Of a stretch of 64,000 nt of DNA, positions 39,499-64,000 are shown in pieces; positions within the stretch are counted from its first letter, which is position 1; each line of letters opens with the position of its first letter. This DNA comes from Nemertoderma westbladi (lineage: Eukaryota > Animalia > Xenacoelomorpha). The position numbers and the translations under genes were made by a program. The notes beneath the pieces are model-generated. The model did not search any database. It saw only the letters and a program-made list of their open reading frames with translations, and was not told the origin of the DNA. Location of the stretch: contig JAUCBJ010006329.1 in the NCBI GenBank assembly GCA_032718475.1, positions 1 through 64,000 on the forward strand, given 5' to 3'.

Positions 39499-40039
39499 TG
39501 TTAGCTTATTCAATCCCGCCAACACCCCATAAAGTTGTAAGCCGATAAGCAATATTGGGAGCCACGAGATTGGGCAATTAACCAACTCGTGCCATCCCAA
39601 TAAGAGTGGGAAGGAAGCACACAATAGAGGGTCAGGGGCCAAACCCCTAACCCAGAGGAAATAGGTGGAGTGAACGGGAATACTCCACGGGGCGCCAACA
39701 AGGGTATTAACCAATCAGAGGGGGGAAAGGCATCGATTGAGTAGCAGTAAGGCCACCGTGCAATATAACCAGTAACCTATTAATCAGTGATTCAGTTATC
39801 TCAGTGCAGCAGTGCTAGCGTAGGTTGGTAATCAATTAGTTTAGTTAGGGGATCACGGGACTTTAGTTACCGTATCCCGCCTTGTACACATTATATCTAT
39901 ATCTATATCTTATGCCCTATCATTATTATACACCGAACTTCAGAACTCAGACACTTTATTTCACCCTTATACACGGCGGGGACGCGTGGACTAAATTACC
40001 ACATCAGATAAATCGGGATCCCTCCTGGATCCCGTCACA
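39499..40039 (+). repeat. 5' LTR (541 bp)
   Basis: Starts TGTTAGC, ends GTCACA. Direct repeat of 53330-53870 with 3 substitutions seen by eye. Several TCAGT Inr-like motifs at ~39784-39805. Confidence 0.96.
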
Positions 40040-40119
40040 GTAACTAAATCCGAGCTGCCGCCCCAGTTAAACTCTGAGAACTACACTGCTAGCTAGTCGA
40101 ACTCCACCGAGCAGACGAG

Positions 40120-42594
40120 ATGAGTGAATCGGGCGAGACACCGCCGCGGACCCCGGATGAAGACCTAACGATCCGCGAGGCCGCGACCAAGCGATACAGG
40201 CCCACGACGCCGGAGCCATCGATAACGGGCGAACCGGAAGTCCAGAACGAGGAGGGCCTGGAACCCGAAGTCGAGCCAAGAGAGAAAGAGAGCGAGACGG
40301 AGGGAGAAGGAGACGAGTCGACACGAGACGGAGAACGGCGCGCCGATGTCGCCGGCCAGCTACCGGCCGAGGGCGACGAGCGGCCCACCGAAACGGCGAC
40401 GATGGGGCCGACGGTGCGACGCCGGACGCGAAGAGACGGAGGAGAGATCGGTACCGATGTCGCCGGCCAGCTACAGGCCGAGGGCGACGGACGGCCCACC
40501 GGAACGGCGACGGTGGAGCCGCCGGTACGACGTCGAACCCGGAGGGACGGAGGAGAGGTCGGCGACGAGGACGTCGGGGTTTCTGAGCGACTTCGACGGG
40601 CCTACAACGCGACCCGGAAGCTGATAAACGACGCCAAGAAGGAAGGGGCGAAGGTAGACGAGGTGAGACTGAGAAAGCGACTAGGTGAGTCGGATAGACA
40701 CTTAAGTTACCTAATACGTTTTGGGCAGAGAGAACTGGCCGGGGAGAGAGCAGAAGGGATAGCCGGCGAACTGTTTGAACTATGGGAGTGTGGGAGTATG
40801 GAACCTAGTATAGCGCCATTGTACATAGGGCCATACTTGGTCGATGCCCGGGGAGTAAAACCAGTGGGTTGGAGGGGACTCGAAGGGGGCGAATCCGAGG
40901 TTAACCCCGAGGATTCGGCCTCGTCGGTCGGAGAAAGCTCCGGGAGGCGGGGGAAAGTTAGTAGGTCGGGAAGGCGGGGGAAGTCCGTCGTAACCGATAA
41001 GTCTGTTACATCCTCCGCGAAAGAAAGAGTGGTGAGAGAGGTAGGTGCCGCATACCGTCTCGACGTGGCAGAGCAAGGTCAGAAGGAAATGGAGGAACGG
41101 CTAGAGGAGGGGAGAGCGCGGTTAGCGAGGGAAGCGGCATTGATTAAAGAGAACGGAGAGAGGCTCGAAAGGGCTTTGATGAGCCTTAGGGAGAGTGACG
41201 AAATAGAGGAAAAGGAGTGTAGAGAGCGTGAGGCTAGGGAGGAAAAGGAACGCAAAGAGCGTGAGGCGGAACGCAAGGAATATGAGGCGAGAAAGGAAAA
41301 GGAACGCAAAGAGCGTGAGGCGGAACGCAAGGAATATGAGGCGAGAAAGGAAAAGGAACGTAAGGAGCGTGAGGCGAGGCGAAGGGAGATCGCTAGGAGT
41401 GTGGTAGAGTCGGACAGACGGGACAGTCAGGAGAGTGAGAAGAGAGGGGCAAAGGCTGAGCAAGAGCTAAGGGATTTAGAGAAACGCCAAGGTGAATCGG
41501 CGAAAAATAAGATTAGACGGGCGCACGAACTGGAACTGGTCCGAGCGTTGCCGTCTGAAAGCGGGGCCGGCTCGAGTATTTTTGAGGAGCCAGGGGCCGT
41601 AGACACGTTTATTAATACCCCACTGACAGGGACCGCACGACAGACCCAAAACTGGTGTGACCGTACGGGCGGGGGGGGGGGTAATAATAATGATGGTACA
41701 GTAGACGTTGTTGATATTAATAGTACCGTATGGGATAACTCTAATCAAACCTTTATTGCAGGGAATACTTTACCTAGTGGTAGTAACTTAAATTTAAATC
41801 AGAACGTCCCTAGTATTAATGTAGAAAATAATCCTAATATTGATGTAGTTACGCAAAATAATTCAAATAATCAAAATAATAACCCGAATTCGGACCTACA
41901 AAATAACTTAAATAACGCAATTACACAAAATAATTCGAATAATTTAAATAATGATCTTAGCCCGAATTTACAAAATAATTCAGATAACGTAGTCGCGCAG
42001 AATAATACAAATGATTTTGTTTCAAACGAGCAAATTAATTCCGTTTCCAATATGGGTGCTATTAATGTAAATACGTCTGGCCTACATAACCAGGGAGCAG
42101 AGGGCCTGGTAGGCCACGTAGTTAGTAGACAGGAAGCAGAGGGCCTGGTAGGCCACGTAGTTAGTAGACAGGCAGCAGAGGGCCTGGTAGGCCACGTAGT
42201 TAGTAGACAGGCAGCAGAGGGCCTGGTAGGCCACGTAGTTAGTAGACAGGGAGCAGAGGGCCTGGTAGGCCACGTAGTTAGTAGACAGGCAGCAGAGGGC
42301 CTGGTAGGCCACGTAGTTAGTAGACAGGGAGGAGAGGGCCTGGTAGGCCACGTAGTTGGTAGGCAGGGAGTAGAGGGTCTGGTAGGCCACGCAATAGCAG
42401 AGGGAGAGGCGGGGGTGAATAGACCCGACCGTGGTAGGGTTGATGTGTCGACTAGAGAGATATATAGTAGCGGGGCGAGAGGTAGCGAAGTAGAATGTAG
42501 CGGGTGGGGGGGGGCTACAAGGGCCCCACAACAGAGAGTTAGCGGCGAGAGGGGGGGGGGGGGCAGAGAGTGTCCCACAGCCGTCAGCGGATAA
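40120..42594 (+). CDS. N-terminal part of the Gag(-Pol) polyprotein: low-complexity, coiled-coil, Asn-rich, with internal tandem repeats
   Basis: 824-aa ORF from an ATG 80 bp after the 5' LTR. E/R/K-rich helical region and N-rich tract. Overlaps the next ORF (open from 42543) across a G13 run, so it probably belongs to one polyprotein. Confidence 0.7.
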   Translation: MSESGETPPRTPDEDLTIREAATKRYRPTTPEPSITGEPEVQNEEGLEPEVEPREKESETEGEGDESTRDGERRADVAGQLPAEGDERPTETATMGPTVRRRTRRDGGEIGTDVAGQLQAEGDGRPTGTATVEPPVRRRTRRDGGEVGDEDVGVSERLRRAYNATRKLINDAKKEGAKVDEVRLRKRLGESDRHLSYLIRFGQRELAGERAEGIAGELFELWECGSMEPSIAPLYIGPYLVDARGVKPVGWRGLEGGESEVNPEDSASSVGESSGRRGKVSRSGRRGKSVVTDKSVTSSAKERVVREVGAAYRLDVAEQGQKEMEERLEEGRARLAREAALIKENGERLERALMSLRESDEIEEKECREREAREEKERKEREAERKEYEARKEKERKEREAERKEYEARKEKERKEREARRREIARSVVESDRRDSQESEKRGAKAEQELRDLEKRQGESAKNKIRRAHELELVRALPSESGAGSSIFEEPGAVDTFINTPLTGTARQTQNWCDRTGGGGGNNNDGTVDVVDINSTVWDNSNQTFIAGNTLPSGSNLNLNQNVPSINVENNPNIDVVTQNNSNNQNNNPNSDLQNNLNNAITQNNSNNLNNDLSPNLQNNSDNVVAQNNTNDFVSNEQINSVSNMGAINVNTSGLHNQGAEGLVGHVVSRQEAEGLVGHVVSRQAAEGLVGHVVSRQAAEGLVGHVVSRQGAEGLVGHVVSRQAAEGLVGHVVSRQGGEGLVGHVVGRQGVEGLVGHAIAEGEAGVNRPDRGRVDVSTREIYSSGARGSEVECSGWGGATRAPQQRVSGERGGGGRECPTAVSG
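42091..42390 (+). repeat. 39-bp coding minisatellite (13 aa, QxAEGLVGHVVSR), 7 full + 1 partial copy
   Basis: Unit CAGG(G/C)AGCAGAGGGCCTGGTAGGCCACGTAGTTAGTAGA read directly from the sequence. Confidence 0.95.
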
Positions 42595-45290
42595 TGCGAG
42601 GGCCGAACAAGGTAAACCGCAACAACCGGCGACGGAAAGTAATAGGGGGATTGCGAGTATCCCCAGCGACGTGCGACCGAGCAGAGAAAGACAGGTTGAC
42701 GTCGCGGAGAGGGCGGACGGAGCGTCGAGCCCGATCAGAGGAGGAAAGAAGAACAGTGGGGTTTAACCGGGAGGTCGACGAGAGATCTCGTGAGCGGGAA
42801 TATTCCACTGATAGGAGAAGAGAGGAAGACAGTAGTAGAAGTATCGCCGCAAACGATAGAAGAGCGAGGACGGACAGCGAGCCGTCGGTAGTCGAGATGA
42901 GAACGGAGAGTCAGTGGGGTCGGACTCCGGGAGATTGCCGTCGCCCCGGAGGGATGCGATCCGGTGAGGCGCATTACACGCCGAGAGAGGGGTACGCGAT
43001 GTACCGGTACGAGGATGAAAACAGTGGAGAGGGGGGTCGAAGAGAAACTTTCCGACGGAATATACCTACCGATCGAGAATACGGTAGCCGCGGGGAGGAT
43101 TATTCGAGAAGAATAAACTTCGATCCCGAGCAACACATGCAGACTGTAGGGCATACTGTAGGTCTTACTGCACATACCGTAGGCCATACTGAGAGAGGCA
43201 ATGTAGGCGATAGGATAGCGTGGACAACGGGATTAAACCCGGAAGTCGCGGAATACATACCGGCGAGTAGGCCAGAAGCTGATAGGCCTATACCGGTACC
43301 AGCACAGCAGTATGACTACAGCATGCAGGGACATAACATATACCCAGGGGAGGGGGGAATTATTGCGGATAGGTGCATGGGCCCCAACATATTAACATCA
43401 ACCCCAGTACCAGACATACCGGTGGGGGGGGGACAGGGTGACATTCCCCCATCACAATATCAACAATATACCCCAACAGGAACAAGAACAACGAGACCCC
43501 TAGATGAAAACAGGTCGTGTGATACAGACATATGGAGGGGGCCGCTACCCCCGATGACATATCCGAGTCAGAGAAGATCAAGAAATAGGACGGACGAACC
43601 GCACCAGACAGGGGAAACTATACAGCGCCCGTCGAATCCATTGGAAGCGCAGGCGATGGGGATGGCCACGTTGATCGATGCGTTGAAAACGAGGATCGAA
43701 TTACCACCCGTGGAACCATTCAAATTCGATGGGAGCAGGCCGGAAGAATACTTACAGTTTCGGCGAATGTATAGTAACGAAATACTAACAAAAAACTTGA
43801 CGCAGGCGGAGTGCCTAAAGTATCTACAAGTGTACACGGGAGGCCCAGCATACGACATCGTGAGGCAATATCAGGGAATAGAGGGCGGCTTCACGACAGC
43901 ATGGCGGGCACTGGATAGGGAATACGGGCACCCGGCCAAGATCATCAGGCAGACGCTGAGAGGCATAACATCGGGTGGCCTACAGGATAATCCCGTTAGC
44001 ATTAAGACGTTTGCTAACAAAGTCGAGAAGGCGCTGATCGTGCTGAAGACGCTAGACGCGCCATACGAGCTCAACGCGTCCAACAACATCACCACGATAG
44101 CGCAGGCACTACCGAGCTGGCTGCGCAACAAATGGAGGAAGATCGCTTTCTCCACTCGAGACAAGAAGGGTGCGGAACCAGGTTTAGAAGAAATGTCAAA
44201 CTTCTTAAATTACGAGGCTGAACTAATAACTGACCCAGTCTATAGCGAAGACAGCCTGGGAAAGGGACCAAAGACAGACTACCATAGACCAAAACCAGAG
44301 CACAACACATCGAACGCGTTACCGAGACTCAGGCAATCATTGCCATATGCAGCGACGCAGGGGACTGCAAGTCCACAGACAAACGAAGATAAGACAACAT
44401 CAAGGGACGGACAGGGGAACAATAACAACATGAATAAACATAACCCCAGTACGTCCAGTAGGCCAAACCCAGTCAATAAGAATAGTAGGGACTTTGGTAC
44501 GAATATAACTGCGATACGCAATGCATTGTATAAAGAGGGCTACGACCCAAAGAGCAAATGCCAGTTACACGCAAATGCGCTTCATAAAACCATGAACTGC
44601 AGGTACTGGCAGGCGCTACCGAGGCAAGACCAGATAGATTACGCGTCGAGCAATAAAATCTGCTCGCGATGTGTGAAGAGTGGACACAAGGCCAGGGAAT
44701 GCCAAGAGAAGCCGGTCAAGTTTGGCCAAAGGAGAGGCCAAACGATGGCAACGAGCACGGTAGGGGCGAAGAAGAGAGGTACGGTGTTACTTGGAGTAGT
44801 ACCAGTACGAGTGATCGGGGAAGGCAATCGATCAGTAACAACACTAATGCTGGTTGATAGTGGAGCTGCCTTCACATTAGTTGAGGAATGGGTAGCCGAA
44901 GAAATAGGGTTGAGAACGAGGCCAAGCAGAATGGCGGTAACAACCATCTCTAGCAAAGATGAGGTCCTAGAGATGAGGACAGGACGGTGCGCAATTGCAG
45001 CAGTGGCACCAGGATGCGATTATGGGGCAACCATCGACCCCATCCAAGTAATAGAGTCAATTAACATCAATGCCAGGCGGCCAACCAACATCGAGGTCGA
45101 GCAATACAAATTCCTGGACGACATTGACTTCTCGATCCCAGACGTGGACGTTAGGAAGGTATCCATCATAGTAGGAATGGACTGCCCGACGGCCCACGAG
45201 AAGAATGCAAACGGTCTTCGGCGAAGACAAGCAGAGCGACCCGGTGGCCATATTAACACCATTCGGGTGGACGCTGAGTGGTCCAATTAA
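42570..45290 (+). CDS. gag: BEL/Pao Gag core (DUF1759-like), zinc knuckles and aspartic protease; frameshifted fragment
   Basis: FKFDGSRPEEYLQF...AWRALDREYG capsid-like region; CQLHANALHKTMNC and CSRCVKSGHKAREC knuckles; protease MLVDSGA...IIVGMD. Homology moves to another frame near 45200. Confidence 0.88.
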   Translation: MSHSRQRIMRGPNKVNRNNRRRKVIGGLRVSPATCDRAEKDRLTSRRGRTERRARSEEERRTVGFNREVDERSREREYSTDRRREEDSSRSIAANDRRARTDSEPSVVEMRTESQWGRTPGDCRRPGGMRSGEAHYTPREGYAMYRYEDENSGEGGRRETFRRNIPTDREYGSRGEDYSRRINFDPEQHMQTVGHTVGLTAHTVGHTERGNVGDRIAWTTGLNPEVAEYIPASRPEADRPIPVPAQQYDYSMQGHNIYPGEGGIIADRCMGPNILTSTPVPDIPVGGGQGDIPPSQYQQYTPTGTRTTRPLDENRSCDTDIWRGPLPPMTYPSQRRSRNRTDEPHQTGETIQRPSNPLEAQAMGMATLIDALKTRIELPPVEPFKFDGSRPEEYLQFRRMYSNEILTKNLTQAECLKYLQVYTGGPAYDIVRQYQGIEGGFTTAWRALDREYGHPAKIIRQTLRGITSGGLQDNPVSIKTFANKVEKALIVLKTLDAPYELNASNNITTIAQALPSWLRNKWRKIAFSTRDKKGAEPGLEEMSNFLNYEAELITDPVYSEDSLGKGPKTDYHRPKPEHNTSNALPRLRQSLPYAATQGTASPQTNEDKTTSRDGQGNNNNMNKHNPSTSSRPNPVNKNSRDFGTNITAIRNALYKEGYDPKSKCQLHANALHKTMNCRYWQALPRQDQIDYASSNKICSRCVKSGHKARECQEKPVKFGQRRGQTMATSTVGAKKRGTVLLGVVPVRVIGEGNRSVTTLMLVDSGAAFTLVEEWVAEEIGLRTRPSRMAVTTISSKDEVLEMRTGRCAIAAVAPGCDYGATIDPIQVIESININARRPTNIEVEQYKFLDDIDFSIPDVDVRKVSIIVGMDCPTAHEKNANGLRRRQAERPGGHINTIRVDAEWSN

Positions 45291-45891
45291 GAGCAAGATA
45301 CCATTCAGGATGTCGGAGACATCAGGATGCATGTTCGCGGGAACAATGCAGGAAATGGGTGATGAGGGAGCAGAGGAGCAGCTTAAAAGACTGCTCAGAC
45401 AAGACTTTGAGGGACTGAAAGAGACCGGGGTCGGGACCTCGGTAGAAGACAAACAGGCTCTACAAAGCGTGGAGGAATCGATGACGTGTGATGAGGGGCG
45501 GTATACAATAGGAATGGTATGGAAACTACCGAAGATACCGCTACCCGATAATAGAGGGATGGTACTCACGAGACTCCGCAAGCTGAAACAAACACTACAA
45601 CGGAGCCCCGAGAAGAACGAGTACATTCACAAAACGATAAAGAAGTACGTCGAGAAAGGATGGGCCGTGGAGTTACCGGTCGACGAGCCGAACACGGACA
45701 GGACATACTACCTGCCACTCCACGTAGCTTTAGACCCAAAGAAAGGTAAACTTAGGATGGTAGTCGATGCATCGGCAAAGACCGACGGAAAGTGCTTAAA
45801 CGACTACCTACTAGAGGGCCCAAACATATACAATTCGGGCATAGAAGTACTACTTAGATTTCAGGAATGGGAAACACGCCTTCACGTGTGA
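45205..45891 (+). pseudogene. pol: Pol fragment: PR-RT linker and N-terminal RT, bounded by frameshifts
   Basis: PVAILTPFGWTLSGP, YYLPLH, KLRMVVDAS, LNDYLLEGPN, LLRF. The continuation HAFTCDIEGMFNQV lies in the next frame (shift at ~45870). Confidence 0.88.
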
Positions 45892-45901
45892 CATAGAAGG
45901 C

Positions 45902-48766
45902 ATGTTCAACCAAGTCCGAGTAACAGAGGAAGATAGCGACAGTCAACGCTTCTTATGGTATAACGGCGAAGAAGAACCGCCTATAATACCGGCATATAAG
46001 ATGGTAGTACAAAACATGGGGGCCAAGTCGTCCTCATTTACGACGACTATGGCAGTGAGAGACACGGTAAAGGGGAAGGAAGATAGATACAGCAGTAGGG
46101 CCGTCGATATGATCCGACGCGGCTTCTACGTAGACGACGGTATGGAGTCTGGAAATACGGTTGAGGAGATACTGGAAACAGGGCGCGAGGTTCGCGACAT
46201 CCTGAAAGGATCCGGCTTCAACCTGACCAAATTCCAATCCAGTTCAGAAGAATTTATCAAGGCAATAGAGGACAAGAAACCAGAATCGACCATGGACAAC
46301 CCTACAACAGCCAAAGGACAGGACATGGCGATTAAGAGAACGGAATCCCAGCAGAAGGCATTGGGAATCGTGTGGGATAGAAAAACAGACGAACTGAAGT
46401 ATCAGCTGAGCCAGGAGGGCGCAGACACCCATACGAAGAGGGGTTATGTATCGTATATAGCAAGGATATACGATCCCCTAGGCCTAGCATCCCCATTACT
46501 AGTCACGGGGAAACAGATACTCAAGAGAGTATATAAATTGAAGGATGAGTGGGATGTAGAGGTACCAGAGGACATCAAGAAACAGTGGAGCAAATGGACA
46601 GGAGACTTGGAGAGGATGGGAACATACAACATGCCGCGAGTGTATTTCCCGGACGGGAACATGACGAATCTGGACCTACATATGTTCTCCGACGCGTCGT
46701 TAGAGGCATACGGAGCGGCACTCTATTTAGTACAACGAGAGGGGCCTCACAAGCCCAGACTAGCCTTTAGCAAAGCTAAGTCAACGCCGCCAGATTCAGC
46801 ATCTGTTCCCAAGTTAGAATTGACAGCTGCGAGACTAGGAGTTAGAGCCACAGCCTACCTAGTGGATACAATTCCCAACATAGTGGAGACACACTACTGG
46901 ACGGACTCCATGGTAGTGCTTGGTTGGCTACACAACGAAAAGACGAGATACCCGATATTCGTCGCGAATAGAGTGGACGAAATAAGAGCAACCACAGAAC
47001 TAGAAAGGTGGCACTACTGCCCAACAGATGAGAACCCAGCGGACTTGCTGTCGAGGGGCGTGGAACGCCACACTTTCCTGAAGAAGGAAGTATTGTGGCA
47101 ACATGGGCCACAATTTCTGAGCGATAGAGAGGCCTGGCCGCCGATGAGGAAGGTGGACCCGGGCTCGGAAGTAGTATCAGAAGGAGAAGAGGGAGATTCA
47201 GAGGGAGAAGAGATATACTCCCAGATGGTGAGGGAGATTAGGGACGTGCAACCAGGAAGGGAACTGTGCGATAACCCGACGGATAAACTCCTCAGCTACA
47301 GTTCTAGTTGGTATAAGACCAAGAAACTAGTGGCGTACTGGAGAGCCTTTGGGAATTTCCTTGCGGGAGTCGGCAAGGACAAGAAGATCAGGACAACCAT
47401 AGATCTGGAAGGAGCGGCCAAGGCAGTGATCCGCTATGAACAACGGAAGAACTACGGCGACGAGGTGGAACGCGTCGGTAACCAACAGCACCTCCGACGG
47501 GACAGCGAGTTGATCACGCTGTCGCCACAACTCAATGACGACGGGATTCTAGTAATGAATTCTAGGGTGGGATACAACAACAGTATAGTCGTACCACCGA
47601 AACCCATCATCATTCCTACAGGATCGCCAATAGTCCACCAGATTATATGGGACTCCCATAAATCGATATTGCATGGGGGCACCAACCGAACCCTCACAGA
47701 GATAAGGAGGACCTTTTGGGTCAAACAACTAAGGAAGAAGGTTAAAGCGGTAGTGGGGCAGTGCCAGACCTGCCGACGGGCGAAGAAGGAGCGAGCCATA
47801 CAGGAGATGGCGCCACTACCGGCGAGTAGGGTAAGACAGCACGACCCGCCATTTACGCATTGCGGTGTGGACATGTTCGGGCCGATAAAGATCAAGGTGA
47901 TGCGACACACGGAGAAACGCTACGGTATTATCTTCGTATGCAACAATACGCGGGCGGTAGGGATAGAACTCGCCCAAGATGCAACCGCATCAGCATTCAT
48001 TAACGCCTTAGAAAGGTTTAGGGACCGCAAAGGTGGGACGATCGCAGTGATATATAGCGACAACGGCACCAACTTTGTGGGCGCAGAGAGTGAGATGGCA
48101 GAGGCCTTAGACATCTTGGAGGGAGAAGAAGTCAGGGCGGCCATGAGGAGACGACAAGTGAAGTGGGAGAGAAGGACGCCGTATGCACCACATACACTAG
48201 GATGCGTCGAGAGACTGGTGGGCAGTTCAAAACGTCTAATGACGAAGCTGATGAACACCCACATGGTCACTGAAGACGTCTTACGGACAGTACTTGCGAA
48301 GTGCGAGGGGATCATTAATAGCAGACCGCTATATCCAGAGAATGATGACCCTGAGTCATTAGACGTGCTAACACCTAGCCATTTCCTGATGGAAAGGCCA
48401 GCGACCATCGATATGCGGGGTGTAGACCCAGATGATATACACTCCCGCCAAAGTTGGAAAGTAGCTAAAGCAATTAGCGCAGAATACTGGAGGAGGTGGG
48501 TAGAGGAATACCTACCCACACTCCATAAGCGGAGCAAGTGGAGGAAGCCGAACAGGGAGTTAAGAGAGGGAGATCTCGTAATCGTCACGGATGATACTAT
48601 CATCAACAACCAGTGGCGGTTGGCGAGAGTTGTAGGCACCTACTCCGACGAGGACGGAAGAGTCCGATCGGTAGAAGTGCGGATAGGTGGAAAGATAGGT
48701 GCGAAGGACAGAAAAACCTACAGGAGAGCGGTAGGTAAATGCTGTCTTCTAGAAGGGGCACCTTAA
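45902..48766 (+). CDS. pol: Pol: RT core, RNase H (Pao peptidase A17-like domain), integrase
   Basis: RGFYVDD; HMFSDASLEAYGA; PKLEL; WTDS; HHCC (SHKSILHGG...CQTC); DDE (GVDMFGP, YSDNGTNF, VERLV); C-terminal W..W.EEYL..L..RSKW and GDLV...W.LARV. The ATG at 45902 is internal, not a true start. Confidence 0.93.
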   Translation: MFNQVRVTEEDSDSQRFLWYNGEEEPPIIPAYKMVVQNMGAKSSSFTTTMAVRDTVKGKEDRYSSRAVDMIRRGFYVDDGMESGNTVEEILETGREVRDILKGSGFNLTKFQSSSEEFIKAIEDKKPESTMDNPTTAKGQDMAIKRTESQQKALGIVWDRKTDELKYQLSQEGADTHTKRGYVSYIARIYDPLGLASPLLVTGKQILKRVYKLKDEWDVEVPEDIKKQWSKWTGDLERMGTYNMPRVYFPDGNMTNLDLHMFSDASLEAYGAALYLVQREGPHKPRLAFSKAKSTPPDSASVPKLELTAARLGVRATAYLVDTIPNIVETHYWTDSMVVLGWLHNEKTRYPIFVANRVDEIRATTELERWHYCPTDENPADLLSRGVERHTFLKKEVLWQHGPQFLSDREAWPPMRKVDPGSEVVSEGEEGDSEGEEIYSQMVREIRDVQPGRELCDNPTDKLLSYSSSWYKTKKLVAYWRAFGNFLAGVGKDKKIRTTIDLEGAAKAVIRYEQRKNYGDEVERVGNQQHLRRDSELITLSPQLNDDGILVMNSRVGYNNSIVVPPKPIIIPTGSPIVHQIIWDSHKSILHGGTNRTLTEIRRTFWVKQLRKKVKAVVGQCQTCRRAKKERAIQEMAPLPASRVRQHDPPFTHCGVDMFGPIKIKVMRHTEKRYGIIFVCNNTRAVGIELAQDATASAFINALERFRDRKGGTIAVIYSDNGTNFVGAESEMAEALDILEGEEVRAAMRRRQVKWERRTPYAPHTLGCVERLVGSSKRLMTKLMNTHMVTEDVLRTVLAKCEGIINSRPLYPENDDPESLDVLTPSHFLMERPATIDMRGVDPDDIHSRQSWKVAKAISAEYWRRWVEEYLPTLHKRSKWRKPNRELREGDLVIVTDDTIINNQWRLARVVGTYSDEDGRVRSVEVRIGGKIGAKDRKTYRRAVGKCCLLEGAP

Positions 48767-48885
48767 AGCGGAGTTAGAGTGAAGTTTAGTCGTCCAAGTT
48801 TTGGACTGAGGGGGGTGGGATTGAGGGCGAGACGCCCTTCCCACACAAATAAAAATAAAAATAAAATAAAAATAATAGTACATAG

Positions 48886-49580
48886 TAGGTACGTAGTACC
48901 TAGAGTTAGTTACTTAGTTAGTAGGTACGTAGTACCTAGAGTTAGTTAGAGAGTTAGTAGGCAGAAATTAGCTAAGAGGTACGTAGTACCTAGTTAGTTA
49001 GTTAGTTAATAGGTACGTAGTACCTAGTTAGAGTTAGAGAGTTAGTAGGTACGTAGTACCTAGAGTTAGTTAGTTAGTAGGTACGTAGTACCTAGAGTTA
49101 GTTAGTTAGTAGGTACGTAGTACCTAGTTAGAGTTAGAGAGTTAGTAGGTACGTAGTACCTAGAGTTAGGGAGTTAGTAGGTATGTAGTACCTAGAGTAG
49201 AGAGTTAGTAGGTACGTAGTACCTAGAGTTAGTTAGAGAGTTAGTAGGTACGTAGTACCTAGAGTTAGAGAGTTAGTAGGTACGTAGTACCTAGAGTTAG
49301 TTAGAGAGTTAGTAGGTACGTAGTACCTAGAGTTAGTTAGAGAGTTAGTAGGTACGTAGTACCTAGAGTTAGTTAGAGAGTTAGTAGGTACGTAGTACCT
49401 AGTTAGAGTTAGAGTTAGAGGGTACGTAGTACTGCTAGTTAGAGTTAGAGTTAGAGGGTACGTAGTACCGCTAGTTAGAGTTAGAGTTAGAGGGTACGTA
49501 GTACCGCTAGTTAGAGTTAGAGTTAGAAGGTACGTAGTACCGTTAGTTAGAGTTAGAGGGTACGTAGTACCATTAGTTAG
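48886..49580 (+). repeat. Array of 20 palindromic units (T)AGGTAC-GTA-GTACCT(A) with variable AGTT/AGAGTT spacers, period mostly 30-36 bp
   Basis: Cores counted at about 48886, 48922, 48977, 49010, 49046, 49078, 49110, 49146, 49178, 49209, 49245, 49277, 49313, 49349, 49385, 49421, 49457, 49493, 49529, 49559. Confidence 0.93.
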
Positions 49581-50087
49581 AAGAAGAGAGAGTAAGAGGT
49601 AAAAGGGGGTAAATAGGATATAGATATTAATTAGCAGTAAGTAGAGTTAGTAGCGAGAGGGGGGCATATGAGTACAGCTGGATAAATCGTGTGGCCACAC
49701 GACGCATACTGCTGTACTGCATAGGCCCACTGAGTAGGCCAGAATATGGATCAGAGAGAGAATAGAATAAATCCATAGGCAGTAGTAAGTAGTAGGACAG
49801 TAGAATCAAAGCAAAATAAACAAATAAATAGAATAGGGCTGAAAGTTAGGAAATAGTGGCAACACAAGCGAAATCGTTCTAGAACATAATAAAAGTAACG
49901 GACAGAAATTGTAAATTAGGCTGATTTACTAGCTCTGAAATTAATTAGGTAAAATTAAGCTTGAAAGGCGCAATTAAGTAGAAAGTAGGCCATTGTCGAA
50001 CTGTACGAAACATCTTAAATACTTCACTCATCTGTATTGCGCCTTGGTAAGGCACCACCCTACAGGTGAGCGAGTGTAGTGTTCGGA

Positions 50088-52622
50088 ATGGCGAGTAAGC
50101 TGATCAGGAAGAGAAAGGCGGAGTCAGGAGGAAAAGAAATATTGGTGGATTTCACCGAAAGACACCCGGAAGAGAAGACGAGAGGATACTACGAGAGGTT
50201 GGAAAGGGGTCACGCGGCACGAGCGCTGCAGGATCACTTCCGGGAGGCGCACGAACAGCGGTTGGTCGGGACCTACGGGACCCCGTCACTAGACAACGCG
50301 ATCTTCCAACACTTCCACTACGTGGTGAAAGGGGACGAGGCGAAGTTCGGGATTCCGAAGTATCCGAGGGAATCGCCGAGGAAGGACTGGAAAAGATTCA
50401 TAGAGTCCGTCAACAGAGGAGGATATATGATCCTAGATGACGAGGGAACCGTGGAGGACGAAGCGGGTTCAAGGCGAGGAACGGCAGGGTCGGCCAGGAC
50501 CATACTCCTACATTTGGCCGCGCCGAATGGGGACATCTTCTTATTCGATCTAGGGACGTATGGGAAGAAGGACGGGCCGAAATTAGACCGATTGCCGAAA
50601 GCGGTACAAGTCTTAGTAAGAGAGAAGTCGACGACGAAAGTGGGATCGGCGATTCGCGAGGATGCGGAGAGGATCATCGGTCCGGACGCCACCAACCTCC
50701 TGGACATGCAGAAAGTCTTTATGGCTATGACGGCACCGGATGGATTGGGGGTGGTCGAGAACACAGGCCAATGCGGGGCGGTGGCGATGGGCCAATTATT
50801 GGGGCTCGTATGCCACAAACCGATGGATTGGGGGAAGTTTAGGGAAGAATACGGAGCAGAACTAGCGAACTCGCTGAAGTGGGGAGCGAGACCGGGAAAG
50901 CAGGAGGTATATCAGTTTCGCAGAGGAGCGATAAAGGTATATCAGAAGCGATATATCCTGCAGGAGGACTGGATGATGATAAGTTTGCTTAACTTATTCA
51001 TGACCGTAGTTATCGAAAGGGAACCAGGGGCATTTCTGTTATCGGGATCACCCCTAAGCTACAGGAGAGCCTTTAAGACGGCCTTTGACGGTCTGGTAGA
51101 CCACCCGGGGCTGAAGGGCGAGTCGGTGTACTACAACAGCCGACATCTGGTAGACGGGGAGACAGATACACCGTATCAGAGATGGGAGCAGCTAGAGGCG
51201 GACAGACGAGAAGCAAAGCGACTGGAAGAAGTCGCTAGACGGGAGAGGATAGAAGCAGAGGAGAGGGAAGAGGAGGCCAGGGCACAGAGTTACGGCTTCG
51301 AGGAACAGGCGGGCCTAGACGAGCTTCATTGGACTTCGTCAGGGAGTTCGGGGGAGTCTCTAGGACGAGAATTGGGATGGACGGTGGGATCGCCGAAACA
51401 GTCGACGTCGGGGTTGCAAACGATGCCCATACCAGCGGGCGCCGAGGGCGACCAACCGCCAAGGAAGTTAAGGGAGCTAGAGGGATGGAGAGCTACGGGC
51501 GAGAGCCAAGGCGGAAAGGGACATAGTGGATCCATCGGGATACCGGGATTGGAGACACTACCGGAAGAGGAGGACGACGACGACGAGTTCGGAGAGATGC
51601 CGCCCATCGAAAGGATAGGCCACTCGGACACAGACTGGGTTGGCGGAAGGGTGGTGACGGCCAGTGGGGCGAGGGCCTTCTGGAACAGATCCGGCAAGCG
51701 GACCTGGGTGCACGAGGAGCCGGCGATGGATTTCGCGGGGAGCACCATCAGGTTGGGCGAGCAACCGGGGACGGCACCACGGATAGTATTCGGGGAGACG
51801 ATGCCCGAGAGGGGCGGAGAGATCGACGTAAACAGGGAGAGCAACGTGGAGAAGTTCGCCTACCAGCGACTCCATAGACCGCGGAGATCGCTTGGGACGA
51901 AGGACGAGGTGGGACGGGAGACATTGGTACTCGGCTGCGACTACTGTGGGAGACAGACCCATCAGGAAAGCAGCTGCCTATACCGGTTCCAACGGGGAAC
52001 CTTTTGTCTCTACTGTAGAGAACCAAGTCACAGGATGGGGGCGTGTCCACGGTTGCATAACCGATGTCCAAAGTGCCACTTTCGGGGGCACTACGGACGC
52101 GAGTGCGACTGGATGAGCGACGAGGAGAAGTTCACGAGGTTCGAGGAATGGGCCGACGTCGGGGCCATGACGCGCCAGCGCATGAAGGCCCAAGAGTTCA
52201 AGTGGGGTTTCTTCCTCATAAACCAGGAGACCCACATGGAAATCATAAAGCGAAGGTTACCGTTTACCTATCAAGAGGTAGCTACGGCGGCATCGTTCGC
52301 TGGAGTTATGAACACGCAACGGTACCTGGACAGGTGGACACCAGAGAACCGGAGGGAGTTTAGGGATTTCTTGGCGGAACACGTACCAAAGGCAATGAAA
52401 ATGATCCTATGGGACGCCACTCGAGGGAAACAACCAGGCCATTCTGAGGGGCCACCGGCGAAGCGGTATCGGGCTTTAATAACACCAGCGCCCAAGGAGC
52501 CGACGACCGGGATCAGCAAGGAAGTGGCAGCGAAGGTCCGGAAACAGAAAGCGGATGATGCCAGAGGAGCGGTGATAACCAAGAAACGGGCCAGGGAAGA
52601 GGATGTGAGGAGGTACAGATAA
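50088..52622 (+). CDS. Additional retrotransposon ORF: putative DEDDy 3'-5' exonuclease (WRN/Mut-7/EXD-like) plus 3 CCHC zinc knuckles
   Basis: First ATG at 50088 in good Kozak context (GGAATGG); uninterrupted ~845 codons. Motifs in order: ILDDEG (ExoI), LLHLA..GDIFLFDL, LP..V..L....TKVGSAIREDAERI (ExoII), NLLDM, LLG...K, YQKRYILQED (ExoIII-like). Knuckles CDYCGRQTHQESSC, CLYCREPSHRMGAC, CPKCHFRGHYGREC. Confidence 0.78.
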   Translation: MASKLIRKRKAESGGKEILVDFTERHPEEKTRGYYERLERGHAARALQDHFREAHEQRLVGTYGTPSLDNAIFQHFHYVVKGDEAKFGIPKYPRESPRKDWKRFIESVNRGGYMILDDEGTVEDEAGSRRGTAGSARTILLHLAAPNGDIFLFDLGTYGKKDGPKLDRLPKAVQVLVREKSTTKVGSAIREDAERIIGPDATNLLDMQKVFMAMTAPDGLGVVENTGQCGAVAMGQLLGLVCHKPMDWGKFREEYGAELANSLKWGARPGKQEVYQFRRGAIKVYQKRYILQEDWMMISLLNLFMTVVIEREPGAFLLSGSPLSYRRAFKTAFDGLVDHPGLKGESVYYNSRHLVDGETDTPYQRWEQLEADRREAKRLEEVARRERIEAEEREEEARAQSYGFEEQAGLDELHWTSSGSSGESLGRELGWTVGSPKQSTSGLQTMPIPAGAEGDQPPRKLRELEGWRATGESQGGKGHSGSIGIPGLETLPEEEDDDDEFGEMPPIERIGHSDTDWVGGRVVTASGARAFWNRSGKRTWVHEEPAMDFAGSTIRLGEQPGTAPRIVFGETMPERGGEIDVNRESNVEKFAYQRLHRPRRSLGTKDEVGRETLVLGCDYCGRQTHQESSCLYRFQRGTFCLYCREPSHRMGACPRLHNRCPKCHFRGHYGRECDWMSDEEKFTRFEEWADVGAMTRQRMKAQEFKWGFFLINQETHMEIIKRRLPFTYQEVATAASFAGVMNTQRYLDRWTPENRREFRDFLAEHVPKAMKMILWDATRGKQPGHSEGPPAKRYRALITPAPKEPTTGISKEVAAKVRKQKADDARGAVITKKRAREEDVRRYR

Positions 52623-53291
52623 GTTCCCAGAGACGAGGGAATGAGACTGAGACTGGGACGTGGTGCGCCTGGAAGGCGCCGCATGTAACGTACGAACTAT
52701 TAAGTACAAATTTAATTAACGCAAATAATCATATAAGTGCAATTTGTATGTACGTACGTAGTGATTAGCAGTAAAATACATACGTTTGGAGTAAGTACTA
52801 TAGTCATACAACCTTTCTCAATTAGCTACTGGGACTGGGGCATAACTGACTATGGCACTATGGACGAGACAACTGACAATTTCACACTTCTCGAGTGCGA
52901 CGGCACGAGAGGGGGGGGGAGGTTCGTCAGGAGAGATAAAACAGTCGAAGTGAGGTTGAGGGATGGAGTGATAGAGTGGAGTGCAAAGAGAGTGCGGACG
53001 CGATTCTAGAGTGTGGGGGGGGAGAATAAGAGGCTGAGTAAGGGACGAGGAGGTCCGAATGTGAGAGAGTTAGGGTGAGAGTGAAGGTGAGATAGGGCGA
53101 AAGTGTTGGGGAAACAAAAGTCGTGTGAAGAGGTGAGCGCGATCGGCCCGACATGAGACACCAGGCACACAGGGTAGCGTTATCATACCCATAGGGGGCG
53201 GCCTGGAAAGCCGACCCCAAGAGAAAAGAATTCCACCCCACACCCGATACTAGATCGGGATCCAGCGGGATTGTAACGCACTTTTAGGTTG

Positions 53292-53329
53292 ATGCTATCT
53301 TCTTACCGGGAAGATAGCATGGGGGGGAG
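53292..53329 (+). promoter_or_regulatory. Hairpin plus polypurine tract before the 3' LTR
   Basis: ATGCTATCTTC-ttaccgg-GAAGATAGCAT (11-bp perfect stem), then GGGGGGGAG abutting the LTR TG. Confidence 0.85.
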
Positions 53330-53870
53330 TGTTAGCTTATTCAATCCCGCCAACACCCCATAAAGTTGTAAGCCGATAAGCAATATTGGGAGCCACGAGA
53401 TTGGGCAATTAACCAACTCGTGCCATCCCAATAAGAGTGGGAAGGAAGCACACAATAGAGGGTCAGGGGCCAAACCCCCAACCCAGAGGAAATAGGTGGA
53501 GTGAACGGGAATACTCCACGGGGCGCCAACAAGGGTATTAACCAATCAGAGGGGGGAAAGGCATCGATTGAGTAGCAGTAAGGCCACCGTGCAATATAAC
53601 CAGTAACCTATTAATCAGTGATTCAGTTATCTCAGTGCAGCAGTGCTAGCGTAGGTTGGTAATCAATTAGTTTAGTTAGGGGATCACGGGACTTTAGTTA
53701 CCGTATCCCGCCTTGAACACATTATATCTATATCTATATCTTATGCCCTATCATTATTATACACCGAACTTCAGAACTCAGACACTTTATTTCACCCTTA
53801 TACACGGCGGGGACGCGTGGACTAAATTACCACATCGGATAAATCGGGATCCCTCCTGGATCCCGTCACA
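53330..53870 (+). repeat. 3' LTR (541 bp)
   Basis: Direct repeat of 39499-40039, followed by the TSD TTTCG. Confidence 0.96.
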
Positions 53871-56800
53871 TTTCGTTTAAGATTCTCTATCTCGTGGAGT
53901 GGATTAGAAGTGATAAATATGAAAATCGATGTGGTTTTTGAAAAAAATCAGAGGATATTTTGATAAATTATTGCTGAAAAACCCCAAGGATTTTGACATG
54001 GCTTTAATACTCATTATATTCATGAAATAGCTGAGATATTTGAGGTGAATTATTGCATTACATATTAACTTTGGCTCCAGCCGCTTTGGCAATACGATGA
54101 AACTATAATAAAAATTCTAGACCACAACAATATTAACAGGGAGATAGGCTACTTATCTCTTCATTCTGAGAGCCTCAAAAAGGGGGTGTTCTGACGCAAT
54201 CAAAATTCATCCATCTCCTGGGGAAAGACGAAGCAAATAACAGCTGATTACTTCTATAAAGGAAAGTGTTACCTGTTCTTATGACTTTCGTTTAAGATTC
54301 TCTATCTCGTGGAGTGGATTAGAAGTGATAAATATGAAAATCGATGTGGTTTTTGAAAAAAATCAGAGGATATTTTGATATTTTATTGCTGAAAAACCCC
54401 AAGGATTTTGACATGGCTTTAATACTCATTATATTCATGAAATAGCTGAGATATTTGAGGTGAATTATTGCATTACATATTAACTTTGGCTCCAGCCGCT
54501 TTGGCAATACGATGAAACTATAATAAATATTCTAGAACACAACAATATTAACAGGGAGATTGGCTACTTATCTCTCCACTCTGAGAGCCTCAAAAAGGGG
54601 GTGTTCCGACGCAATCAAATTTCATCCATCTCCAGGGGAAAGACGAAGCAAAGAATAGCTGATTTCTTCTATAAATGAAAGTGTTACCTGCTCTTTTGAC
54701 TTTCATTTAAGATTCGCTATCTCATGGAGTGGGTTAGAAGTTATAAATATAAAAATTGATGTGGTTTTTAAAAAAATCAAAGGATATTTTGATAAATTAT
54801 TGCTGAAAAACCCCAAGGATTTTGACAGGGCTTTAATACTTCATTATGTTCATGAAATAGCTGAGATATTTGAGGTGAATTATTGCGTTACATATTAACT
54901 TTGGCTCCAGCCGCTTTGGCAATACGATGAAACTATACTAAATATTCTAGAACACAACAATATTAACATGGAGATAGGCTATTTATCTCTCCACTCAGAC
55001 AGCCACAGATAGGGATGGGTGTTTTGACACAATCAAAATTCATCCATATCCAGGGGAAAGACGAAGCAAATAACAGCTGATTACTTCTATAAATGTAAGT
55101 GTTACCAGTTCTTTTGACTTTCATTTAAGATTCTTTATTTTGTGGAGTGGGTTAGAAGTCATGAATAAGAAAACCGATTTCGTTTTTTGTAAAAAATCTG
55201 AGGATATTTTGATAAATTATTGCTGAAAAACCCCAAGGATTTTGACATGGCTTTAATACTTCATTATGTTCATGAAAAAACTGAGATATTTGAGGTGAAT
55301 TAATGCATTACATAATAACTTTAACTCCAGCCACTTTAGCAATACGATGAAACTATAATAAATATTCTAGAACACAACAATATTAACATGGAGATAGGCT
55401 ATTTATCTCTCCACTCAGACAGCCACAGATAGGGAGGGGTGTTTTGACACAATCAAAATTCAAACATCTCCAGGGGAAGACAAAGCAATTAATATCTGAT
55501 AACTTCTATAAATGTAAGTGTTACCTGTTCTTTAGACTTTCGTTTAAGATTGTCGAACTCTTGGATTGGGTTAGAAGTCATGAATATGATAATCGATGTC
55601 GTTTTTAGTAAAAAATCAGAGGAGATTTTAATAAATTATTGCTGAAAAACACCAAGGATTTTGACAAGGATTTAATACTCATTATATTCATGAAATAGCA
55701 GAGATATTTGAGGTGAATTATTGCATTACATATTAACTTTGGCTCCAGCCGCTTTGGCAATACGATGAAACTATAATAAATATTCTAGAACACAACAATA
55801 TTAACAGGGAGATAGGCTACTCATCTCTTCACTCTGACAGCCTCAAAAAGGGGGTGTTCCGACGCAATCAAAATTAATCCATCTCCAGGGGAAAGACGAA
55901 GCAAAGAATAGCTGATTACTTCTATAAATGTAAGTGTTACCTGTTCTTTAGACTTTCGTTTAAGATTGTCGATCTCTTGGATTGGGTTAGAAGTCATGAA
56001 TATGATAATCGATGTCGTTTTTAGTAAAAAATCAGAGGAGATTTTTATAAATTATTGCTGAAAAACACCAAGGATTTTGACAAGGATTTAATACTCATTA
56101 TATTCATGAAATAGCAGAGATATTTGAGGTGAATTATTGCATTACATATTAACTTTGGCTCCAGCCGCTTTGGCAATACGATGAAACTATAATAAATATT
56201 CTAGAACACAACAATATTAACAGGGAGATAGGCTACTCATCTCTTCACTCTGACAGCCTCAAAAAGAGGGTGTTCCGACGCAATCAAAATTAATCCATCT
56301 CCAGGGGAAAGACGAAGCAAAGAACAGCTGATTACTTCTATAAATGTAAGTGTTACCTGTTCTTTTGACTTTCATTTAAGATTCGCTATCTCATTGAGTG
56401 GGTTAGAAGTTATAAATATAAAAATCGATGTGGTTTTTGAAAAAAATCAAAGGATATTTTGATTAATTATTGCTGAAAAACACCAAGGATTTTGACATGG
56501 CTTTAATACTCATTATGTTCATGAAATAGCTGAGATATTTGAGGTGAATTATTGTATTACATATTAACTTTGGCTCCAGCCGCTTTGGCAATACGATGAA
56601 ACTATAATAAAAATTCTAGACCACAACAATATTAACAGGGAGATATGCTACTTATCTCTTCATTCTGAGAGCCTCAAAAAGGGGGTGTTCCGACGCAATC
56701 AAAATTCATCCATATCCTGGGGAAAGACGAAGCAAATAACAGCTGATTACTTCTATAAATGAAAGTGTTACCTGCTCCTTTGACTTTCATTTAAGATTCT

Positions 56801-56923
56801 TTATCTTTTGCAGTGGGTTAGAAGTCATGATTATGAAAAACGATGTCGTTTTTTTGTAAAAAATCTGAGGAGATTTTGATAAATTATTGCAGAAAAACCC
56901 CAAGGATTATGACATGGCTTTAA
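53871..56923 (+). repeat. ~416-bp satellite, segment 4
   Basis: Resumes in register after the TSD (TTTCGTTTAAGATTCTC). Confidence 0.96.
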
Positions 56924-58475
56924 CCCTATTAAACCCGGGGGGGGGGTCAATATGACCCCTCCCGTGGTTTTTTTATTATAATTCTGAAACAAACGCAGTT
57001 GGGAATCTGAAATTTTATGACTTTTCCTAAAAATCTATTGTCTTCCTAGTAGTGAAAACCGTTTTCAAAAATATTGGGTACTTTTCGAGTTATAGCGCCA
57101 TTTTTTAACCCTACTTTTGGCACTTTTTTTGAGACGTTTTTTGAAAATTACATTTCATTAAATATGAATTGTAACATCTCTATTTTTTATTTACACGGTT
57201 TTTTTGGAGTTAGAAATTTGATGGAATTCATATAAATTGATTTAGAAATTTGAAACTTGTTTTTTTCGGTGGGTGCCAAATTTTGGTGCCAGCACCAAAT
57301 TTTGAAATAAGTCAATTTTGTAAATTGATCGATTGAAACTTGTTTTTTACGCAATTGGGGTTTTTTGGGTTTCTGGATTCGAAGAAATATATACGAGTTG
57401 CACCAAGCGTATCAAACTTGTATTTTTCGGTGCTGTGTGCAAATTTTGGTGCTAGCACGAAATTTTGAAAATCCATTCAATAGATAAAATTGCTTGTGAG
57501 AATTTATTTCTTGCGTTTTAGAGGTTAATGGCTGTTCTGAATTCAATGGAAAATATAATTATCGAACTAGACATCTCAAACTTGTATTTTTCGGATGTGG
57601 GTGCAAAATGTGGTGCTAGCACCAAATTTTGAAAACCATCAAATATATCAATTGATTGTGTCACCTTGTTTCTTGCGTTATACGGGTTTGTGATGGTTCT
57701 GAATTCAATAGAATCAGTAAAAATTTCATAAGAGTTGTCAAACTTGTATTTTTCGCCGGTGGGTGAAAATTGTTGTGCCAGCACCAAATTTTGGAAAATA
57801 TGCAAATTGATAAGTAGATAGTATCACCTTGTTTCTTTCGTTATACGGGTTTATGAGGGTCCTGAATCCGATGGAATCAATAAAAACTGCCCTGGACATC
57901 GCAAACTTGTACTTTTTGGTGATGGGTACGAAATTTGGTGCTAGCACCAAAATTTCCCAAATTACGCCGAAAAATACAAGTAGCAATGATCTAGCATATT
58001 AGAAATGTATTCCATTAGAATCAGCGCCCTCGAAAACCTGAAAATGTGAATTTATAGCATCGTATAAGTGAATTAAAAATTTTGAGTTCTAACTGAAAAG
58101 TGCTGGTTACTTGTTTTTTTCATTTTTTTCCTACGCAGAGAGGACTAAACAGCCATTTATAGTAATCATATCATTTTTTAATATTTTCCAATGTATTTTA
58201 CACCCCAGAAAACCTGTATTGAAAAATAATTAGCCGAAAATGTAACTTTCAAATTTGGTGAAAATTGTGCACTACTTGTAATTTTGGTGCTGCAATATAA
58301 CCACCCCAGTACATTTTTTCGAAAATTTTTTTTTCGGTCGGATCCAGACAAGTGATACCTACGTACAAACAAAAAATCAGACGTTTTCGTAAATATTTGT
58401 AGATTTTAGAGGGGGGGGTCAATATGACCCCCTCCCGGTATTTGTACAACATTTTATAACCCGGTACTAATAGGG
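56924..58475 (-). mobile_element. piggyBac-like MITE family 2, copy B (inverted relative to A), 1552 bp
   Basis: TTAA at 56920-56923 and 58476-58479. Reverse complement of 18289-19843 with scattered substitutions. Empty paralogous site at 6661-6664. Confidence 0.93.
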
Positions 58476-61400: not shown

Positions 61401-62429
61401 CTTGCATTACATAATAACTTTAACTCCAGCCACTTTAGCAATACGATGAAACTATACTAAATATTCTAGAACACAACAATATTAACAGGGATATAGGCTA
61501 CTTATCTCTTCACTCTGAGAGCCTCAAGAACGGGGTGTTCCGACGCAATCAAATTTCATTCATCTCCATGGGAAAGACGAAGCAAAGAACAGCTGATTAC
61601 TTCTATAAATGTAAGTGTTACCTGTTCTTTTGACTTTCATTTAAGATTCGCTATCTCATAGAGTGGGTTAGAAGTTATAAATATGAAAATCGTTGTGGTT
61701 TTTGAAAAAAATCAAAGGATATTTTGATTAATTATTGCTGAAAAACACCAAGGATTTTGACATGGCTTTAATACTTCATTATGTTCATGAAAAAACTGAG
61801 ATATTTGAGGATTATTAAACTATAATAAATATTCTAGAACACAACAATATTAACAGGGAGATAGGCTACTTATCTCCTTCACTCTGAGAGCCTCAATAAC
61901 GGGGTGTTCCGACGCAATCAAATTTCATTCATCTCCATGGGAAAGACGACGCAAAGAACAGCTGATTACTTCTATAAATGTAAGTGCTACCTGTTCTTTT
62001 GACTTTCATTTAAGATTCGCTATCTCATAGAGTGGGTTAGAAGTTATAAATATGAAAATCGTTGTGGTTTTTGAAAAAAATCAAAGGATATTTTGGTTAA
62101 TTATTGCTGAAAAACACCAAGGATTTTGACATGGCTTTAATACTTCATTATGTTCATGAAATAGCTGAGATATTTGAGGTGAATTATTGCATTACATAAT
62201 AACTTTAACTGCAGCCACATTAGCAATACGATGAAACTATAATAAATATTCTAGAACACAACAATATTAACAGGGAGATAGGCTACTTATCTCTTCATTC
62301 TGAGAGCCTCAAAAAGGGGGTGTTCCGACGCAATCAAAATTCATCCATCTCCTGGGGAAAGACGAAGCAAATAACAGCTGATTTCTTCTATAAATGAAAG
62401 TGTTACCTGCTCTTTTGACTTTCATTTAA
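58476..62429 (+). repeat. ~416-bp satellite, segment 5
   Basis: Same monomers, in a variant order similar to ~6660-8700 and ~24800-27200. Confidence 0.96.
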
Positions 62430-63981: not shown

Positions 63982-64000
63982 TTAAGATTCTCTATCTCGT

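Follow-up and report, generated by a model that had tools for sequence, protein, structure and literature searches.

An array between pol and an extra ORF of a BEL/Pao element

The window, i.e., the whole 64,000-nucleotide stretch of Nemertoderma westbladi DNA that was analyzed, contains a 14.4-kb LTR element (39499-53870) inserted into a 416-bp satellite. This element carries a minisatellite array in the interval from pol to an extra ORF, 117 nt past the pol stop codon, and three further tandem repeats are present within the element. The following features, all on the + strand, were located.

39499..40039, +: 5' LTR, 541 bp, TG...CA; preceded by the target-site duplication TTTCG (39494-39498)
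40093..42594, +: first long ORF, 833 aa between stops; of low complexity, containing coding repeats of 111, 54 and 39 bp; no match to a Pfam family
42543..45290, +: gag-protease frame with DUF1759, zinc knuckle and aspartyl protease
45175..48766, +: BEL/Pao pol in two frames (45175-45891 and 45845-48766) with RT, Peptidase_A17, integrase and DUF5641; the stop ends at 48766
48848..48882, +: candidate internal poly(A) site; AATAAA at 48848, 48854, 48860 and 48865, and CA at 48881-48882, 10-27 nt later
48883..49580, +: minisatellite of 20 units; each contains the interrupted palindrome GGTAC-GTA-GTAC(C), separated by spacers of TTAG/AG; the TAGG..CCTA type accounts for 15 units, and the 5 terminal units are variants
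49660..49731, +: predicted single stem-loop behind the array; z -2.1, with 7 of 200 shuffles equally stable
50044..50071, +: splice-donor-like sites TTG/GTAAGG and CAG/GTGAGC (pattern match), the only two between pol and the extra ORF
50088..52622, +: extra ORF, 844 aa; putative EXD2/WRN-like DEDDy-type exonuclease domain and three CCHC-type knuckles starting at C617, C640 and C660
53330..53870, +: 3' LTR; TTTCG (53871-53875) and then the 416-bp satellite come next; neither AATAAA nor ATTAAA occurs on the + strand

BEL/Pao LTR retrotransposons have TG...CA LTRs and a 5-bp target-site duplication. The Pfam domain order of the element (DUF1759, protease, RT, Peptidase_A17, integrase, DUF5641) matched that of BEL/Pao elements, and the nearest relatives of its pol were BEL/Pao pols with 28-35% identity. 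By these sequence characters, the element is a BEL/Pao LTR retrotransposon. Its insertion is recent because the 541-bp LTRs differ at 3 positions (99.4% identity) and the TTTCG duplication is present. The gag-pol of this copy is spread over several frames, either from mutation or from assembly error. The frame at 40093-42594, upstream of gag, has an Asn-rich part and could be a separate ORF or an extension of gag. The surroundings (1-39497 and 53871-64000) consist of the 416-bp satellite, its 368/369-bp deletion variants in a higher-order pattern, and interspersed 162/163-bp repeats.

Public DNA runs contained thousands of contigs over the region, with summed depths of 1e4-1e5 and rare variants at ~10-50. 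These summed depths are not copy numbers but are consistent with a family of very high copy number. Run X5, presumed to be RNA, yielded 9 contigs, many of which continue into dissimilar sequence, and was left out.

Sequence and motif content of the array

The initial annotation had described twenty units with a conserved core and nearly C-free spacers of the TTAG type, and both descriptions proved correct. Twenty cores GGTAC-GTA-GTAC(C) (pattern GGTA[C/T]GTAGTAC) were found on the + strand at 48888-49571, with start-to-start spacings of 30-54 bp, mostly 32-36 bp. Tandem Repeats Finder reported 19.5 copies of period 36 at 48883-49571 (82% matches, score 660). The core had no further match on either strand of the 64-kb window with one mismatch allowed, and no satellite-length expansion of the array was seen in the window. 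The C content of the array is 9% (64/698), and its spacers resolve nearly entirely into TTAG, TAG and AG words, with length differences among units corresponding to 2- and 4-nt words. The DNA behind the array is likewise rich in TAG (49 per kb) and poor in C (14%). Outside the repeats, TAG, TAGG and GTAC were not enriched in the element.

A 7-bp stem had been assigned to the core. This stem is perfectly Watson-Crick paired in 13 of the 20 units but not in the remaining seven: 6 pairs are left in unit 3, 6 pairs and a G-T closing pair in unit 9, 4 pairs and a G-T in unit 16, and 5 pairs in each of units 17-20. Despite their altered flanks, these five terminal units retained the 12-bp core. A C-G closed GNA loop is present in 19/20 units on the + strand only; on the - strand, the loop reads TAC.

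The claimed very high density of Musashi-type motifs was confirmed. With the definition used in PMC12342889, (G/A)T1-3AGT occurred 48 times on the + strand of the array and 0 times on the - strand. Strand asymmetry is, however, common to all tandem repeats, and the entire element is purine-rich on its + strand. The density was 68.8 per kb, compared with 3.8 per kb in the rest of the element (18 times background).

The arthropod telomeric repeat is (TTAGG)n. An origin of the array from this repeat was rejected, with a single TTAGG found in the array. The array shares the word GTAGG(T/CC)ACGTAGT with the 39-bp repeat in the coding sequence of the first ORF, but this was not significant, as equal scores were reached by 633/2000 dinucleotide shuffles, 170/2000 synonymous controls and 20/976 39-mers of the element. 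An Rfam search of 39400-54000 gave two chance-level snoRNA matches only, and none to the array. An additional GTACGTAGT was observed at 52745-52765, within a GTAC/TACG-rich patch past the stop of the extra ORF. Beyond the window, viral contigs were scanned with the array pattern. In one unrelated phage contig (L001, 5001-5120, - strand), the word AGGTAC-GTA-GTACCT occurs in about five close copies, iteron-like, behind a small HTH gene, which is most likely convergence.

Poly(A) signals and a predicted stem-loop around the array

Past the pol stop (48766), the order is a G run, AATAAA x4, CA, the array, the stem-loop, four more AATAAA, the two donor-like sites and the extra ORF. A poly(A) site comprises AATAAA, a CA 10-30 nt downstream, and then a GU-rich element. 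This anatomy was matched at 48848-48882, judging from the sequence alone, and the array starts at 48883, directly behind the AATAAA x4 and CA, which may act as a poly(A) site. The four further AATAAA behind the array (49766-49893) bring the number around it to eight. The LTR has no AATAAA on the + strand and one on the - strand, at 39955 and 53786.

Among the matches listed, none of 40 related elements (described below) had an AATAAA within the first 700 nt past the pol stop (or up to the exonuclease start where that comes sooner), while shuffles of their intervals gave an expectation of 4.0 (Poisson p ~0.02). Because of these 0/40 listed relatives, the window family appears exceptional among the relatives compared in combining AATAAA signals with an array.

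The stem-loop at 49660-49731 had no family variant at ≥10% across ~75 nt (run X1), and 6 of 7 family stem variants still pair as G-U, on the + strand only. It is a better candidate for structured RNA than the array units, although its z is only -2.1.

The extra ORF belongs to a family with an exonuclease-like domain and knuckles

The extra ORF, labeled a nuclease ORF in the initial annotation, had no Pfam match. However, a profile of this ORF and 20 relatives (21 sequences) matched the human EXD2 exonuclease domain (E 1.1e-9), Egalitarian (2e-4) and WRN (0.01), as well as Lin28/nucleocapsid knuckles, and two relatives matched DNA_pol_A_exo1 just under the cut-off. The candidate catalytic residues D117, E119, D192 and Y289 align; the last acidic position is E293, where relatives carry D, E or another residue. 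A single-sequence structure model of the exonuclease region reached a pLDDT of 32. The label is supported by the profile homology to an EXD2/WRN-type domain, and we regard the ORF as encoding an EXD2/WRN-like domain with putative exonuclease activity.

Among 1.84 billion cluster representatives, 76 remote relatives of the ORF were found; the ten that were checked all lacked a name. A word-based protein search gave 0 relatives among 7987 candidates, none of 590 candidates from a metagenome search by the related-locus method was confirmed, and the knuckle motif was found in 0 viral contigs. Conservation within the family is highest in the knuckle domain. At least 40 metagenome BEL/Pao loci (within loci L002-L081), from several deep lineages, carry a member of the family immediately after pol. 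In relatives L005, L038 and L045, the exonuclease-knuckle ORF has 1400-1600 aa, with a large pre-exonuclease extension in L038 and L045.

The array is absent from the relatives compared

A degenerate pattern of the family knuckle motif retrieved at least 120 metagenome loci, among these 80 with long flanks and 40 with 300-base flanks. Among the matches listed, 44 of the 80 long-flank loci had a BEL pol end upstream on the same strand. The exonuclease start was placed in 40 of these 44 listed loci, which formed the comparison set; the 4 loci set aside had 2-12 TAG per kb upstream. Clustering of the 40 listed loci and the window at 80% DNA identity yielded 38 clusters. The window element sits on a long branch of an integrase-region tree with 48 rows, drawn from 32 of these loci, 15 database pols and the window itself.

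The 40 listed relatives have the same gene order without the array. Between the pol stop and the exonuclease, 0/40 loci among the matches listed had the array, its core or a comparable TAG density. The best repeat score in these gaps was 173, with two copies, and their non-coding TAG density was 0-39 per kb, compared with 105 per kb in the window. The array monomer is specific to the window family: its core, with one mismatch allowed, was absent from 120/120 loci among the matches listed, and contigs join the array end to the flank in three runs.

It had been proposed that the array is a functional module paired with the extra ORF, which would be seen as co-occurrence of the two; absence of the array from sister elements that keep the ORF had been named as a refuting outcome. 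This pairing was not borne out, as the array was missing from all 40 listed ORF carriers, which are remote (pol identity to the window only 25-34%) and whose assemblies may break at or lose arrays. Because none of these listed elements with the ORF has it, the array does not appear to be an obligate partner of the extra ORF, at least across the remote relatives compared.

Variation and probable constraint within the family

Family contigs were aligned to units 15-20 and the flank, and variants at ≥1% were counted. Only 3 of 72 core sites (six copies of 12 sites) varied, namely the loop G twice and one arm G. Loop variants prevailed over arm variants, with loop G>A, which is also a CpG transition, at 1.4-3% and arm G>T at 1%; an added A in the loop (3-6%) was the commonest core variant. 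The core did not differ significantly in variability from the flank (3/72 vs 13/175, p 0.41) or the spacers (3/72 vs 15/134, p 0.12), and most spacer variant rows were unit types overlaid on one another. A minority unit type (49463, 49499 and family contigs) has an extra loop A, giving GTAA, which as RNA is a tetraloop of the GNRA type.

In run X6, the six longest listed ORF-region contigs differed from the window by 7-19% (mean 13%), and one contig failed to fit between 49755 and 49986. In the same run, array pieces 35 and 46 letters long, with spacer sequence in them, were identical at depths of 979 and 682, respectively, and the window-like copy had a depth of 13. A window-like copy would need ~200 units to explain the X6 depth, whereas diverged copies would need 10-29. 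At 13% divergence, the probability of an identical 35-mer is ~0.008. The whole array unit, spacer words included, therefore looks constrained, since the X6 units are identical while the X6 ORF contigs are ~13% divergent. This comparison is unphased and based on depths, which are not copy numbers, without a contig linking the array to a diverged ORF, and array exchange between subfamilies would give the same picture. The low X6 coverage at 49549-49704 was left out of this comparison.

Predicted folding of the array

The annotated mini-hairpins hold as a symmetry of the sequence but not as the predicted RNA fold. The RNA ensemble favors pairing of each core with a different unit (mean 0.98), via GUA/GUA internal loops, over the local triloop (0.02); local hairpins were favored only when the pairing span was restricted to 30 nt. 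For two adjacent units, inter-unit pairing gave -19.3 kcal/mol, compared with -14.6 kcal/mol for the triloops. With DNA parameters, the local hairpin (0.37) and inter-unit pairing (0.46) were about equal. The longest uninterrupted helix in the predicted fold has 8 bp, and spacer UAGs were predicted to be unpaired at 0.53. The expected covariation of the stem was not seen: the flanks of units 16-20 are altered on both sides, and the lost outer pairs are not restored. The inner arms are uninformative on covariation because they are nearly invariant.

The exceptional stability attributed to the C-GNA-G triloops is, as reported in PMC13037366, a property of DNA, with GTA the weakest loop and a much less stable RNA mini-hairpin counterpart; the same source reports that GNA mini-hairpins resist 3' exonucleases. 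The loop itself is present in nearly all units (19/20), but on the + strand only, and the commonest core variants alter it.

Discussion

The array is a further case of the known retrotransposon-internal minisatellites, as far as its sequence and position tell, with its own unit and setting. Tandem arrays behind gag-pol are described as common in plant Ogre/Tat LTR elements, where they lie in the 3' untranslated region and their monomers differ between families (PMC7004042). Like these, the window array is a short-unit, family-specific tandem array directly downstream of gag-pol in an LTR element. Unlike them, it resides in an animal BEL/Pao element, has an interrupted palindrome and UAG-type spacers, and is followed by an ORF and preceded by a cluster of poly(A) signals. 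It also resembles the repeats of the gypsy Su(Hw) insulator, copia and ZAM, in which a short core recurs 12-20 times within the non-coding part of an LTR retrotransposon (PMC7168160). However, those arrays occupy the 5' UTR and are targets of known DNA-binding proteins, whereas the window array is located between pol and the extra ORF. Retroviruses offer a precedent for protein binding shortly past a stop codon in the RNA stability element of Rous sarcoma virus, where PTBP1 protects the stop codon (PMC4764554; PMC5580461). Both would be multivalent elements for RNA-binding proteins located shortly past a stop codon with a several-kb tail. The viral element binds PTBP1 and is not described as a tandem repeat in these sources, whereas the window array is free of pyrimidine tracts and UAG-rich, and its function is putative.

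For the extra ORF, the closest precedent is the DEDDy exonuclease ORF3 of the bdelloid rotifer LTR retrotransposons Juno and Vesta (PMC5408684; cited in PMC6338049). Both are separate ORFs behind pol with an RNase D/WRN-type exonuclease domain, but in the window ORF, which occurs in BEL/Pao lineages, this domain is combined with three knuckles. The main text of the Juno/Vesta paper does not use the word 'tandem'. In the literature found, with supplements and repeat databases such as Repbase outside its scope, exonuclease ORF3 was limited to the Juno and Vesta elements. No report of a BEL/Pao exonuclease-knuckle ORF was found there either (subscription journals, supplements and repeat databases outside scope), and the extra-ORF family is probably more novel than the array.

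The reading that we favor, with a probability of roughly 0.4, is that the array, specific to its family, offers host RNA-binding proteins a multivalent UAG platform, which tunes the internal poly(A) site. Of the protein-binding platform suggested in the initial annotation, the host-protein version would thus stand, while its tie to the extra ORF would not (0/40 listed relatives). Action on the sense RNA is favored because the motifs number 48 on the + strand and 0 on the - strand and because the spacer words appear as conserved as the palindrome. A host-protein platform is the best reading since the motifs are sense-only and the unit seems unchanged in diverged subfamilies. Dense sense-strand UAG motifs match what a platform for Musashi or hnRNP A/B proteins would require, with accessibility by prediction (spacer UAG unpaired 0.53).

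The repeat would have arisen by slippage or template switching and then been kept by selection. Adjacent palindromes would pair in 7-8 bp helices, with the UAG spacers predicted to be mainly looped out. hnRNP A/B- or Musashi-class proteins could then coat the array and mask the GU-rich element on the downstream side of the internal poly(A) site. Since the array occupies the position of the GU-rich element, with four AATAAA here and none on the + strand of the LTR, such a coat could balance cleavage and read-through. Read-through would yield full-length genomic RNA and cleavage the gag-pol message. The same coat may also shield the pol stop codon and the 5-kb tail from decay. Against the covering of a single site, the four AATAAA behind the array (49766-49888) are left unexplained. 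An elaborated form of this model is improbable: a built-in poly(A) switch in which the AATAAA x4 cut behind pol, the self-pairing UAG array decides on the cut and blocks 5'-3' decay, and the downstream piece serves, operon-like, as messenger for the exonuclease-knuckle protein.

A serious rival, if less likely, is that the array is instead an unselected hypervariable repeat, i.e., a chance palindrome in TAG-rich, C-poor spacer DNA whose copies multiplied through slippage or template switching and then travelled with a very successful family. Its absence from 40/40 listed relatives, the lack of compensatory stem changes and a core that is not significantly more conserved than the flank agree with this, as do spacer variation in 2- and 4-nt words, which slippage predicts, the similar composition of the DNA behind the array (49 TAG per kb, 14% C) and the three other tandem repeats in the element. 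Arrays downstream of gag-pol are, moreover, described as common in Tat/Ogre elements (PMC7004042). Against a neutral repeat stand the identical units of 35-46 letters in X6, a run dominated by copies that diverge by ~13% in the ORF and do not align in part of the spacer, and the 12-bp core kept in five terminal units with changed flanks.

Slightly less likely, but also a serious rival, is an array of double-stranded DNA sites, in which a dimeric host transcription or insulator factor binds the inverted repeat, making the array an insulator or an enhancer that acts on an internal promoter of the extra ORF. A fixed core with variable spacers would suit such sites, as would terminal units that keep the core sequence while losing outer pairs, and the array lies 507 nt upstream of the extra ORF start. 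In Drosophila retrotransposons, UTR minisatellites consist of arrayed DNA-binding sites (PMC7168160). The 15-bp inverted repeat behind the HTH gene of the unrelated phage contig shows only that such words suit protein sites. However, the commonest core variant (3-6%) is an added base between the half-sites, and in X6 the core seems no better conserved than the spacer words. Zelda recognizes the motif CAGGTA, and this motif, the one known motif compared, had 0 matches in the array.

Quite improbably, the array could be a ligand of element-encoded knuckles, of the extra ORF or Gag, acting as a packaging or dimerization signal in which self-complementary cores pair two genomes. By symmetry, the cores pair in trans as in cis, and the three knuckles of the extra ORF are similar to those of Lin28 and nucleocapsid proteins, yet the knuckle domain is the best conserved of the family while the array occurs in 0/40 listed relatives.

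Single-stranded GNA mini-hairpins formed during reverse transcription, or a source of small RNAs as previously suggested, are very improbable: the local hairpins reach 0.37 with DNA parameters, but the GNA loop is on the + strand only and the + strand of the cDNA is mostly double-stranded, loop variants are the commonest core variants, and small RNAs are unlikely because the longest predicted helix has 8 bp and Dicer needs a longer one. Although C(GTA)G fits the GNA rule for hairpins that resist 3' exonucleases, GTA is the least stable GNA loop (PMC13037366).

If the favored host-protein platform does regulate the internal poly(A) site, the array would show how a very successful retrotransposon balances its gag-pol message, genomic RNA and accessory gene, and would constitute a compact natural multivalent UAG element. 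If neutral, it would be another retrotransposon-borne seed of satellite DNA. The presence of the exonuclease-knuckle ORF in many deep BEL/Pao lineages may matter more than the array.
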